The notes under the pieces: model-generated | The model's input: only the letters and a program-made list of their open reading frames with translations | Told to the model about the DNA's origin: nothing | The model's database searches: none | From: Escherichia coli | GTDB lineage: Bacteria > Pseudomonadota > Gammaproteobacteria > Enterobacterales > Enterobacteriaceae | Strand: one strand, 5' to 3' | Assembly: GCF_030384885.1 (NCBI RefSeq) | Contig: NZ_CP128613.1 | Length of the DNA stretch: 64,000 bases | In this document: piece by piece, positions 10,751-35,026 of the stretch | Position numbering within the stretch: position 1 is the first letter of the stretch | Layout of the letters: every line of letters begins with the position of its first letter | Program-made: the position numbers and the translations under genes

Positions 10751-12591
<1,841 letters not shown>

Positions 12592-32627: not shown

Positions 32628-33701
32628 ATGGCAGAGAAAAGAAGAACCCGCTGGCAGCGGCGGCCAGGCACGACGGGCGGCAAATTACCGTGGAATGACT
32701 GGCGCAATGCCACGACCTGGCGTAAAGCGACGCAATTATTACTGTTGGCAATTAATATTTATATTGCCATCACGTTCTGGTATTGGGTGCGCTATTACGA
32801 AACGGCAGGTAGTACGACATTTGTCGCCAGGCCAGGAGGCATCGAAGGCTGGCTACCGATTGCCGGTCTGATGAATCTGAAATATAGCCTTGCAACAGGC
32901 CAGTTACCGTCCGTCCACGCCGCCGCGATGCTGTTATTGGTCGCTTTTATCGTCATCAGTCTATTACTAAAAAAGGCCTTTTGTTCATGGTTATGCCCGG
33001 TTGGTACGCTTTCTGAATTAATCGGCGATCTCGGTAACAAACTGTTTGGTCGGCAATTTGTCCTTCCCCGCTGTCTGGATATTCCTCTGCGCGGCGTGAA
33101 GTATTTGCTGTTGAGTTTTTTTCTCTATATCGCGTTATTGATGCCCGCTCAGGCTATTCACTATTTTATGTTGTCGCCCTACAGCGTGGTGATGGACGTT
33201 AAAATGCTCGATTTCTTTCGTCATATGGGGACCGCGACATTAATCAGCGTGACCGTTTTGCTGATTGTCAGCCTGTTTATTCGCCATGCCTGGTGTCGTT
33301 ATCTTTGCCCATATGGCGCGCTGATGGGCTTGGTTTCGCTATTGTCGCCGTTTAAGATTCGTCGCAATGCCGAAAGTTGTATCGACTGTGGCAAATGCGC
33401 AAAAAATTGCCCATCGCGGATCCCGGTCGATAAATTAATTCAGGTACGAACCGTGGAATGTACCGGTTGTATGACTTGCGTAGAGTCATGTCCGGTAGCC
33501 TCAACATTGACCTTTTCACTGCAAAAACCTGCAGCAAATAAAAAAGCCTTTGCGTTGTCTGGGTGGTTAATGACGCTACTGGTTCTGGGGATTATGTTTG
33601 CGGTAATTGGTTACGCAATTTATGTAGGCGTATGGCAAAGCCCGGTGCCGGAGGAATTGTATCGACGCTTAATTCCACAAGCGCCAATGATTGGTCACTA
33701 A
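32628..33701 (+). CDS. yccM: 4Fe-4S membrane protein YccM
   Basis: 357 aa; cysteine clusters CxxCxxCxxxCP. Confidence 0.9.
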   Translation: MAEKRRTRWQRRPGTTGGKLPWNDWRNATTWRKATQLLLLAINIYIAITFWYWVRYYETAGSTTFVARPGGIEGWLPIAGLMNLKYSLATGQLPSVHAAAMLLLVAFIVISLLLKKAFCSWLCPVGTLSELIGDLGNKLFGRQFVLPRCLDIPLRGVKYLLLSFFLYIALLMPAQAIHYFMLSPYSVVMDVKMLDFFRHMGTATLISVTVLLIVSLFIRHAWCRYLCPYGALMGLVSLLSPFKIRRNAESCIDCGKCAKNCPSRIPVDKLIQVRTVECTGCMTCVESCPVASTLTFSLQKPAANKKAFALSGWLMTLLVLGIMFAVIGYAIYVGVWQSPVPEELYRRLIPQAPMIGH

Positions 33702-33749
33702 ATTAGCAACAAGCGGAACATCACCTCGCACGGGGTGATGTTCACAAAA

Positions 33750-33923
33750 TCACATTATTTTGATTTTGACATCATAGCTTTCAAGCCCAGTCATTTTTTC
33801 TCGTGCGGTGAAGCGAATTTCAGAGACTTCTTTCCCTGTATTCTTGTTCAACTCGGCGATTTTTTGCGCGATAAAGTCGGCGATTTCCGTTTCGGCTTGT
33901 TTTTTTAACTCTTCAATATTCAC
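33750..33923 (-). CDS. gnsA: GnsA (secG null mutant suppressor), 57 aa
   Basis: Manual translation gives (V/M)NIEELKKQAETEIADFIAQKIAELNKNTGKEVSEIRFTAREKMTGLESYDVKIKIM with GTG start and AAGAGG RBS. Confidence 0.8.
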   Translation of the reverse strand: MNIEELKKQAETEIADFIAQKIAELNKNTGKEVSEIRFTAREKMTGLESYDVKIKIM

Positions 33924-34014
33924 TGTTAACCTCTTCTGGTCTTAAAAGACAGCAACACGCCAGTAAGGTGTTGGTTCCCGGTACCCTGGTCAGGTAAGAA
34001 ATGTTATAAGCCAT
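33913..34014 (-). pseudogene. ymcE-like small ORF, apparently lacking the N-terminal part and an ATG start
   Basis: Frame reads ...SWSLFYICLIFFNAVCIVSDNLLIIESLGEMAYNISYLTRVPGTNTLLACCCLLRPEEVNSEY after an in-frame stop at 34117-34119; only ATG is at 34014 (34 aa). Confidence 0.25.
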
Positions 34015-34086
34015 CTCCCCTAAAGATTCAATAATCAACAGGTTATCGCTTACTATACATACAGCGTTGAAGAAAATAAGGCAGAT

Positions 34087-34112
34087 ATAAAAAAGGCTCC
34101 ACGAGGGAGCCT
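34087..34112 (-). terminator. Intrinsic terminator downstream of cspG
   Basis: Hairpin ggctcc-acgag-ggagcc followed by a T-run on the minus strand. Confidence 0.65.
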
Positions 34113-34315
34113 GATCTTATTTTGTGAAATCCAGCGGCGCATGGTCAGTGCGTATTTGCAGCGCGACGTTATCAAAGGTGATCATCGTCGATTTACAAAA
34201 AATACACTTTGCCCCTAAAGGATTTCGCTCCGTCACATCGAATGCCGATGTGCGGTACTGTGAACCATGACAACATGGACAGCGGAAATGGAGATGTTGA
34301 GTAATAACGGCAACC

Positions 34316-34528
34316 TTAGAGCGTAACAACGTTCGCTGCCGCGGGACCACGTTGCCCCTGCTCAATAGAAAATTCAACTTTCTGATTTTCGTTCAGCGTG
34401 CGGAATTCATTGCTCTGGATGGCGGTGAAATGGACGAAAACGTCTTTGCTGCCATCATCAGGAGTGATAAAGCCAAAACCTTTATCTGCGTTAAACCATT
34501 TTACTAAACCAGTCATTTTATTAGACAT
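34316..34528 (-). CDS. cspG: Cold shock protein CspG
   Basis: 70 aa; [12 protein letters not shown] cold-shock domain. Confidence 0.95.
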
Positions 34529-34813
34529 ATTTTACTTCCTTCATTTTGAGCCTTTCGGCAAACAGGGCTTTAATACAGAAACTACTTAGTGTTCAGGAGA
34601 GAGACTCAAAAGAAGGGGATAATGCCTGATAATGAGAACTGCTTTAGTAAACTACTTTGTATGCTGTCTGTCTTTCAAACCGACTCAGCTATTAACGCAT
34701 GATAATTGAGATTAAGCAATTTTTATTTTAGCCGTCCGGCGGTCTTAAATATCGCTGGCTTTATTTTATTAACCCCGTATAGTGCAGCGCAGTATTTTCA
34801 GTAAGGAATTTGT

Positions 34814-35026
34814 TTGCCCCGTAAAATGACAGGAATTGTCAAAACCTTTGATCGCAAAAGCGGCAAAGGATTCATTATCCCCTCCGACGGTCGTAAAGAA
34901 GTCCAGGTCCATATTTCCGCATTCACTCCCCGCGACGCAGAAGTACTTATACCAGGATTACGCGTGGAATTTTGCCGCGTAAATGGCCTACGCGGACCAA
35001 CAGCGGCAAATGTTTATCTCTCTTAA
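34814..35026 (+). CDS. cspH: Cold shock-like protein CspH
   Basis: 70 aa CSD protein divergent from cspG. Confidence 0.9.

Follow-up and report, generated by a model that had tools for sequence, protein, structure and literature searches.

The interval between ymcF and gnsA in the window, the 64,000-nt stretch of E. coli DNA analyzed here, is ymcE with one base deleted from a T5 homopolymer at codon 24. This deletion splits ymcE into two frames, and the allele is inherited. The explanation we consider probable is that the allele is most likely neutral and that the region is a leader, or possible promoter, of gnsA and not an antitoxin gene. The frameshift allele itself is already known, since RefSeq flags it as a pseudogene. 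For this genome it has little weight, since the frameshift is rare, removes a single base and affects a tiny gene of unknown function. The more interesting by-product is that ymcE does not evolve like a protein-coding gene and that its label as an antitoxin looks unsupported by the sequence comparisons described below.

The features of the locus are listed in Table 1. ymcE is sited between ymcF and gnsA and overlaps both: the last 26 nt of ymcF overlap its start, and the first 11 nt of gnsA, on the same strand, overlap its end. These coordinates and overlaps are identical to those of K-12, in which ymcE (sfa; WP_001309400.1, 76 aa; PF15939, NF007379) has the same position, the same ATG and the same hairpin in codons 11-18. 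Over 24 kb the window matches E. coli strain 2013C-4282 (NZ_CP027579.1) at 100% identity; the ymcE coordinates were mapped from this record, in which RefSeq labels the identical sequence as a "ymcE, frameshifted" pseudogene. In RefSeq, ymcF starts at an ATT (34305-34303) and stops at a TAA (34119-34117); it is intact with the ATT start in 10 of the 10 Escherichia sequences aligned. The cspA-type thermoregulator RNA match runs from the cspG leader through the cspG coding sequence into ymcF, of which it takes in the first ~44 nt. All sampled E. coli records with an intact gnsA are annotated with one and the same GnsA protein allele, WP_001019197.1.

Table 1. Positions of genes, frames and sequence elements around ymcE in the window
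Feature	Position	Strand	Description
yccM	32628-33701	plus	
gnsA	33750-33923	minus	57 aa, GTG start, intact; Pfam GnsAB_toxin, 122 bits
ymcE, frameshifted allele (RefSeq pseudogene)	33913-34142	minus	230 nt, normally 231; between ymcF and gnsA
ymcE C-terminal frame	33913-34116	minus	K-12 codons 25-76 plus out-of-frame upstream codons; PF15939 positions 18-76, 128 bits
~120 nt upstream of gnsA	~33925-34045	minus	15% of columns vary (p = 1e-4), 9% without E69 (p = 7.5e-7), against the neutral proxy
Spacer with the deletion, ~45 nt after the hairpin	~34046-34089	minus	44% of columns vary, 33% without E69
ymcE N-terminal fragment ORF	34053-34142	minus	29 aa (MRRWISQNKIRLPRGAFFISALFSSTLYV); Pfam PF15939 positions 1-23, 47 bits
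T4 run, site of the 1-nt deletion	34073-34076	minus	ymcE codon 24; T5 in K-12 and ~5,400 other genomes
Terminator-like hairpin and T run	34088-34112	minus	stem 34112-34094; within ymcE codons 11-18 (LPRGAFFI)
ymcF	34305-34117	minus	62 aa cold-shock small protein; Pfam YmcF-like, 166 bits
cspG	34528-34316	minus	70 aa, intact; Pfam CSD match
cspA-type thermoregulator RNA (Rfam RF01766)	34262-34684	minus	157.7 bits, gathering score 78

Alignment with K-12 and other strains showed that one T is gone from the T5 run (K-12, TTATTTTTC; window, TTATTTTC). Whereas K-12 ymcE is an uninterrupted 76-codon ORF, the frame in the window is broken at codon 24. The K-12 ATG is retained at 34142-34140 and is followed by 23 ymcE codons (MRRWISQNKIRLPRGAFFISALF...) and six out-of-frame codons, after which come a TAG (34055-34053) and, next to it, a TAA. 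The remaining 52 ymcE codons are read in the -1 frame, which is the phase of ymcF. When the gene was tested against the full 76-position YmcE profile (Pfam PF15939; NCBIfam equivalog NF007379), it failed, the match being split over two frames at positions 1-23 and 18-76. Restoring the T gives the window allele a score of 182 bits, above the cut-off of 163. Besides the deletion, only two base differences from K-12 are present, giving N9K and F41L.

An earlier note on this DNA had described a ymcE-like frame truncated by an in-frame stop and lacking a good start. The frame ending at 33913 does encode exactly the peptide quoted there (K*DQAPSWSLFYICLIFFNAVCIVSDNLLIIESLGEMAYNISYLTRVPGTNTLLACCCLLRPEEVNSEY*), and the PF15939 (YmcE_antitoxin) match in this frame shows that the resemblance to ymcE reflects homology and not chance. 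The frame is also bounded upstream by the TAA at 34119-34117 and contains a single ATG, at 34014-34012, as had been stated. From this ATG, however, 33 aa are encoded and not 34, which is the codon number only if the stop is counted. Because the C-terminal frame is in phase with ymcF, the supposed truncating stop is the ymcF stop codon, and the true lesion is the 1-nt deletion. This stop does not overlap a cspG terminator hairpin; it ends 5 nt upstream of the hairpin, which follows ymcF and not cspG. Nor is a good start lacking, because the K-12 ATG is present in the other frame. The suggestion that the gene may be degraded was right, the frame being intact in K-12 and broken here. The possibility that K-12 might have the same sequence, making the difference one of annotation, was not borne out, since K-12 has the extra T and an intact ORF. 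The anatomy had been misread because ymcF and the frameshift went unrecognized.

The earlier note had also raised the use of a non-ATG start. More broadly, ymcE could still be made in full or in part through such a start, through re-initiation, or through programmed or transcriptional frameshifting at the T run. The C-terminal frame is open for 68 codons and offers two in-frame alternative starts, a TTG (34038; 41 aa) and the ATG (34014; 33 aa). Neither has a properly spaced Shine-Dalgarno sequence; as read from the sequence, GGGGAG abuts the ATG with zero spacing. A non-ATG start or re-initiation was rejected on account of the real ATG upstream in the other frame. Programmed frameshifting or slippage was rejected as well. 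A -1 shift would be required, yet the sequence contains no X XXY YYZ slippery heptamer. From the sequence and general knowledge, a run of four Ts is far too short for transcriptional slippage, and T4 is a rare derived state (9/5,414 genomes) and not a conserved recoding site. The amino-acid sequence does not appear to be under selection anyway, as described below. We therefore regard residual expression of ymcE as very improbable.

The distribution of the deletion was examined with a 94-nt piece spanning the T run, which was searched against 5,426 complete E. coli genomes, 5,414 of which have the locus. Nine of the 5,414 carry the exact T4 allele; all nine are of one haplotype, which matches the window at 100% identity over 1,416 nt, and all nine are annotated "frameshifted" by RefSeq. 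The proteins CspH, CspG, YmcF, GnsA and YccM are each represented by the same allele in all carriers. Two of the genomes are from Gambia and one each from the USA, South Korea, Mali, Kenya, India, Bangladesh and Japan, in several separate submissions. Long-read data typically contain artefactual single-base deletions in short homopolymers, so the missing T could be a sequencing or assembly error in a genome whose true ymcE is intact. But the same allele occurs in nine assemblies deposited as separate records from several countries, on one haplotype, and in none of the other ~5,400 genomes, whereas random errors would scatter over haplotypes. A homopolymer error is thereby ruled out for practical purposes, and we rate this explanation as extremely improbable.

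Over 24 kb, the six other carriers listed individually are ~99.1% identical to the window, which places the T4 allele on at least two slightly different backgrounds. A 902-nt haplotype with the T5 run restored gave no exact match in the complete E. coli genomes searched. The nearest intact relative is RMDEC465, whose ymcE is identical to that of the window, including K9 and L41, except that it has T5 and thus an open 76-codon frame encoding WP_032193925.1. Since this gene differs only in the T5 run, the deletion is a single derived event. The T4 allele thus arose once on the K9/L41 ymcE haplotype and is inherited. Its origin is most simply explained by strand slippage in the T run.

Whether the ymcE reading frame is under selection was examined in an alignment of four E. 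coli sequences and six loci from representatives of other Escherichia species. The K-12 ATG is lost in 4 of the 6 other lineages and the frame is shifted or stopped in 4 of the 6. In Escherichia sp. MOD1-EC7003 the ATG is changed to ATA, and in E. albertii to AGG. "E. coli" SCPM-O-B-8794 has AGG together with a 6-nt deletion that makes a TGA, and Escherichia sp. E1V33 has AGG together with a -1 frameshift in a G run. E. whittamii has a -1 frameshift in a G run, and "E. coli" E69 has -2 and -1 indels with stops between them. cspG, ymcF and gnsA are intact wherever they are complete in the aligned loci. A TTG 11 codons upstream, in the same frame as the ymcE ATG, could replace the lost ATG if it is conserved; it is the start of a 40-aa ORF in the window and of an 87-aa form of the protein (P0001).

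The substitution patterns in ymcE differ from those in its neighbors. The variable columns at codon positions 1, 2 and 3 number 5, 4 and 24 in cspG, 4, 0 and 19 in ymcF, and 7, 1 and 19 in gnsA, with no gap columns in any of the three. In ymcE the corresponding numbers are 13, 10 and 14, with 9 gap columns (third versus other positions, neighbors versus ymcE, Fisher p = 1.8e-4), and none of the alternative frames of the ymcE region has a better codon-position pattern. Among 13 E. coli haplotypes, the synonymous and non-synonymous counts are 6/0 for cspG, 15/2 for ymcF and 5/0 for gnsA, and 2/9 for ymcE (ymcE versus the neighbors' 26/2, Fisher p = 1.3e-5). By the Nei-Gojobori method, ymcE has a dN/dS of 0.81 in the comparison with E. 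albertii and of 0.90 in that with MOD1-EC7003; such values near 1 leave some room for a translated product should nucleotide-level constraint act on all positions. For the neighbors dN/dS is 0.02-0.09 wherever dS is above zero. The dS of ymcE is just 0.02-0.08 versus 0.18-0.63 in most neighbor comparisons. Purifying selection on a YmcE protein was thus not detected in these comparisons, which gave no excess of third-position or synonymous changes, no dN/dS well below 1, and frame-breaking indels. These patterns point to constraint on nucleotides and not on codons. Nowhere in the genus does ymcE show signs of selection at the protein level; it appears to evolve like non-coding DNA, and the frameshift is therefore probably harmless.

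The nucleotide-level constraint is unevenly distributed along ymcE. As a neutral proxy we used the third codon positions of the neighbors, in which 35% of columns are variable (33% without E69). The hairpin lies 5 nt past the ymcF stop and consists of a 7-pair stem (5 G-C), a 5-nt loop and a tail TTTTTATATC; with a G+C-rich stem and a T run downstream of a gene it has the form of an intrinsic terminator, and we predict that it is one. Only 11% of the columns of the hairpin and T run (~34116-34090) vary across species, with or without E69. The spacer that bears the deletion evolves, judged by its variable columns (Table 1), at the neutral rate. In the ~120 nt before gnsA it is the nucleotides that are conserved, whatever their codon position. 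The substitutions that lineages other than E69 have in this block affect the spacer of a putative promoter, the indel hot spot GGGTACCGGG, or a single T of a CTTTT run near gnsA. The possible gnsA promoter consists of TTGAAT (34031-34026), 17 nt, and TATAAC (34008-34003), and the gnsA Shine-Dalgarno sequence, AAGAGG (33935-33930), lies 6 nt ahead of the GTG. This pattern suggests that the conserved 120 nt may be a leader or promoter of gnsA.

A search for a conserved RNA structure in ymcE or the gnsA leader demonstrated none. None of the 55 pairs predicted by RNAalifold has a compensatory change, because the sequence is too conserved to show any. The single-sequence fold is no better than shuffles (z-score -0.83), and Rfam gave nothing at threshold over ymcE. 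Given the lack of covariation and this z-score, a predicted pairing of an invariant UAACCU with the gnsA Shine-Dalgarno sequence is only an idea.

These observations are consistent with the following account of the T4 allele. The change from T5 to T4 at codon 24 puts the ATG and 23 codons in one frame that ends after 29 aa, and shifts the remaining 52 codons into the frame of the upstream ymcF. The deletion has a constrained non-coding element on either side, the hairpin behind ymcF on one and the ~120 nt before gnsA on the other. On the cold-induced cspG-ymcF transcript the ymcE region would most likely serve gnsA as a read-through leader, and possibly as its promoter; it is unlikely to encode an antitoxin. 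Because the deletion lies in a neutrally evolving stretch of a repeatedly broken, unselected ORF, the change is most likely selectively neutral, for which we find good support. gnsA, ymcF and cspG are untouched by the deletion, and gnsA, which has retained its own Shine-Dalgarno sequence and GTG, should therefore still be expressed in the T4 lineage. We go further, and hold it somewhat better than an even chance, that ymcE in general is not a protein-coding gene under selection but a cis-acting stretch of the cold-induced cspG-ymcF-gnsA transcript. Such a stretch would comprise a terminator, maybe crossed by a short upstream ORF as by YnfR in the Qin prophage (see below), a free spacer, and a ~120-nt leader or promoter of gnsA. 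If this is true, the T4 lineage and the Shigella strains with a disrupted ymcE are natural knock-outs, and the 76-aa product is dispensable.

The alternative is that ymcE is a functional small membrane protein or antitoxin that has truly been lost here, with a cost or benefit in the cold or in lipid homeostasis, or with GnsA left unneutralized but tolerated as weakly toxic. More than 99% of E. coli genomes have an open 76-codon frame, and curated YmcE models exist at NCBI (NF007379) and Pfam (PF15939); both facts count against a non-coding ymcE. The protein would have a hydrophobic segment, and its gene overlaps gnsA by 11 nt. Overexpression of ymcE from the ASKA library gives slightly higher n-butanol tolerance (PMC3050900), which also counts against the non-coding reading. 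ymcE is named among the cold-shock genes (PMC2948877), and in O157 Sakai the ymcE/sfa mRNA rises ~3.2 log2 after a cold downshift while the protein is absent from the accompanying proteomics (PMC4057180). In the literature on ymcE we found no report in which the protein was detected. Its frame has no third-position bias, the synonymous and non-synonymous counts and the dN/dS given above do not resemble those of a constrained protein, and the frame is repeatedly broken beside an intact gnsA in other Escherichia species, in Shigella and in the T4 lineage. A functional YmcE is therefore unlikely in our judgment.

The antitoxin label has been carried through several kinds of study. Reviews and databases give ymcE-gnsA as a toxin-antitoxin pair (PMC8484670, PMC5516121, PMC12219334); modelling and expression papers, citing reviews and the GnsA crystal-structure paper, list it as type II (PMC8484670, PMC5516121). 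A 2025 structure-prediction study calls YmcE "a bacterial antitoxin" and notes few homologues and noisy couplings (PMC12219334), and phylostratigraphy places ymcE-gnsA among young genes (PMC12218254). Plasmid-borne gnsA, on the other hand, is a multicopy suppressor that rescues the growth of several mutants and raises unsaturated fatty acids, and in these suppressor studies its overexpression was not reported to be toxic (bioRxiv 2024.03.27.586906, PMC10607373). Such rescue of growth is not the behavior expected of a classical toxin, and it too argues against YmcE as a functional antitoxin. The suppression of fabA6, the sfa phenotype, was reportedly credited by Sugai et al. in 2001 to gnsA and not to sfa/ymcE.

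ymcE and gnsA do have the layout of type II pairs such as relBE, being two small, adjacent, co-oriented genes with an 11-nt overlap, and a single transcription unit is putative. Unlike those pairs, the supposed antitoxin is not co-conserved with its toxin: gnsA is intact in all Escherichia lineages aligned, whereas ymcE is repeatedly lost. It also shows no protein-level selection and lies off mobile elements. Indirect evidence also speaks against the harm expected from loss of an antitoxin: viable, geographically widespread lineages (the nine E. coli genomes and Shigella) have a broken ymcE and an intact gnsA. Taken together, the comparisons suggest that selection does not act on the "antitoxin" frame and that what is conserved is the nucleotide sequence ahead of gnsA. 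Lists of E. coli toxin-antitoxin systems routinely include ymcE-gnsA, and the pair has served in modelling (PMC8484670) and structure prediction (PMC12219334). If our reading is confirmed experimentally, both the K-12 gene annotation and the toxin-antitoxin entry need revision, and the focus moves to the coupling of gnsA, a modulator of unsaturated fatty-acid content, with the cold-shock transcript.

The YmcE family is small, with 28 clusters among 5.8 billion proteins. All are from Escherichia, Shigella or E. albertii except for one partial entry labeled Salmonella, and many of them are fused to YmcF or GnsA, are truncated, or have had their N-terminus replaced. No ymcE-like DNA was found in 50,697 phage records, and in the plasmid collection the only matches were 12 large non-mobilizable E. 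coli records; in these collections the family is thus absent from phages and mobile plasmids. The common form in Shigella (P0013; L032, L033), seen in at least 135 contigs, is a ymcE interrupted by an IS4-family transposase, and the gnsA directly downstream is intact. Like the allele in the window, it is a natural disruption that leaves gnsA, ymcF and cspG intact, but it is a transposase insertion near the hairpin and not a frameshift, and it is much more widespread.

A paralogous module with the same gene order, cspI-ynfQ-ynfR-ynfN-gnsB, is present in the Qin prophage of K-12. Its csp gene, its ymcF-like gene, and gns with its Shine-Dalgarno region are 73-74% identical to their counterparts. 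The spacer before gnsB is unrelated to ymcE in sequence and much longer (473 nt versus 194 nt), which rules out YnfN as a YmcE homologue, although the spacer ORF ynfN is likewise marked frameshifted by RefSeq. gnsB is a paralogue without a ymcE counterpart, a further point against YmcE as a functional antitoxin. An equivalent hairpin follows the ymcF-like gene in Qin, and there too a short ORF is read across it: YnfR (21 aa) crosses it as ...APSGAFLL..., as YmcE codons 11-18 do as ...LPRGAFFI.... Detection of YnfR as a small protein induced by cold has been reported (PMC6001520). Since a real peptide crosses the equivalent hairpin, the 5' part of ymcE, at least, may be translated too, and translation across the hairpin after ymcF may be real even without the full 76-aa product.

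The six other listed carriers of the ymcE frameshift were compared with positions 20000-44000 of the window, and their identity was about 99.1% over these 24 kb. The same six genomes are 100% identical to the window across 1.4 kb around ymcE. This difference between the local and the regional identity suggests that the ymcE locus of the carriers is surrounded by a recombination mosaic.

Some of the 901-nt matches are non-carriers of the frameshift because of a separate 1-nt length difference in the gnsA-yccM intergenic region (window 33702-33749). This difference is found in some E. coli, for example O26 FWSEC0001 and EC7518, and both strains have an intact ymcE. Strain 272 (NZ_CP018239.1; positions 779-951 of comparison locus L026) presents the reverse case. 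Its ymcE is intact and its gnsA is annotated as frameshifted, with the gap column visible in the alignment. The ymcE gene is broken in both SCPM-O-B-8794 (L015) and E69 (L018). The records of these two strains are titled Escherichia coli and come from a one-genome-per-species collection, and their identities to K-12 over this block are just 96% and 94%, respectively.

In the Qin prophage of K-12 (locus L029), the place of ymcE upstream of gnsB is taken by ynfN. The sequences of ynfN and ymcE are unrelated. RefSeq annotates ynfN as frameshifted in K-12 itself.

The earlier note had raised a non-ATG start for ymcE. In this neighborhood it is ymcF (ATT) and gnsA (GTG) that have non-ATG starts, rather than ymcE. 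The ATT start of ymcF is kept in all ten Escherichia sequences of the alignment. For ymcF, the ORF list gave an 86-aa frame with a TTG start at 34117-34377, overlapping the end of cspG.

Features near ymcE and in the Qin prophage (positions in the window unless marked L029)
Feature	Position	Strand	Remarks
ymcF start	34303-34305	minus	ATT, non-canonical; RefSeq annotation
STnc220 sub-threshold match	34079-34159	minus	spans ymcF 3' end and hairpin
Hairpin 3' of ymcF	34088-34112	minus	within ymcE codons 11-18
Sigma-70-like motif	34003-34031	minus	TTGAAT-17 nt-TATAAC; inside invariant block 5' of gnsA
ynfN	L029 10645-10874		230 nt; ymcE-equivalent position upstream of gnsB, K-12 Qin prophage

In the prophage copy, the 21-aa YnfR, which has been detected experimentally, is read across the equivalent of the ymcF hairpin (L029, around 10879-10944). 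Read-through into gnsA and gnsB could be modulated by translation across the terminator. Over the ymcF hairpin of the window, Rfam gave a sub-threshold match to the Salmonella sRNA STnc220, scoring 31.4 bits where the gathering score is 60 (E = 0.004). This weak match could reflect a 3'-end-derived small RNA or could be due to chance.

The sigma-70-like motif is a candidate promoter upstream of gnsA. Both of its hexamers show no variation across species, and several positions of the spacer are variable. Its -10 hexamer does not end in T, which is why the motif was missed by the consensus scan. The cspA thermoregulator was matched by Rfam with a full score on cspG (157.7 bits), and a weak, sub-threshold match of 15.9 bits was found on the leader of the divergently transcribed cspH (window 34684-34900, plus strand).
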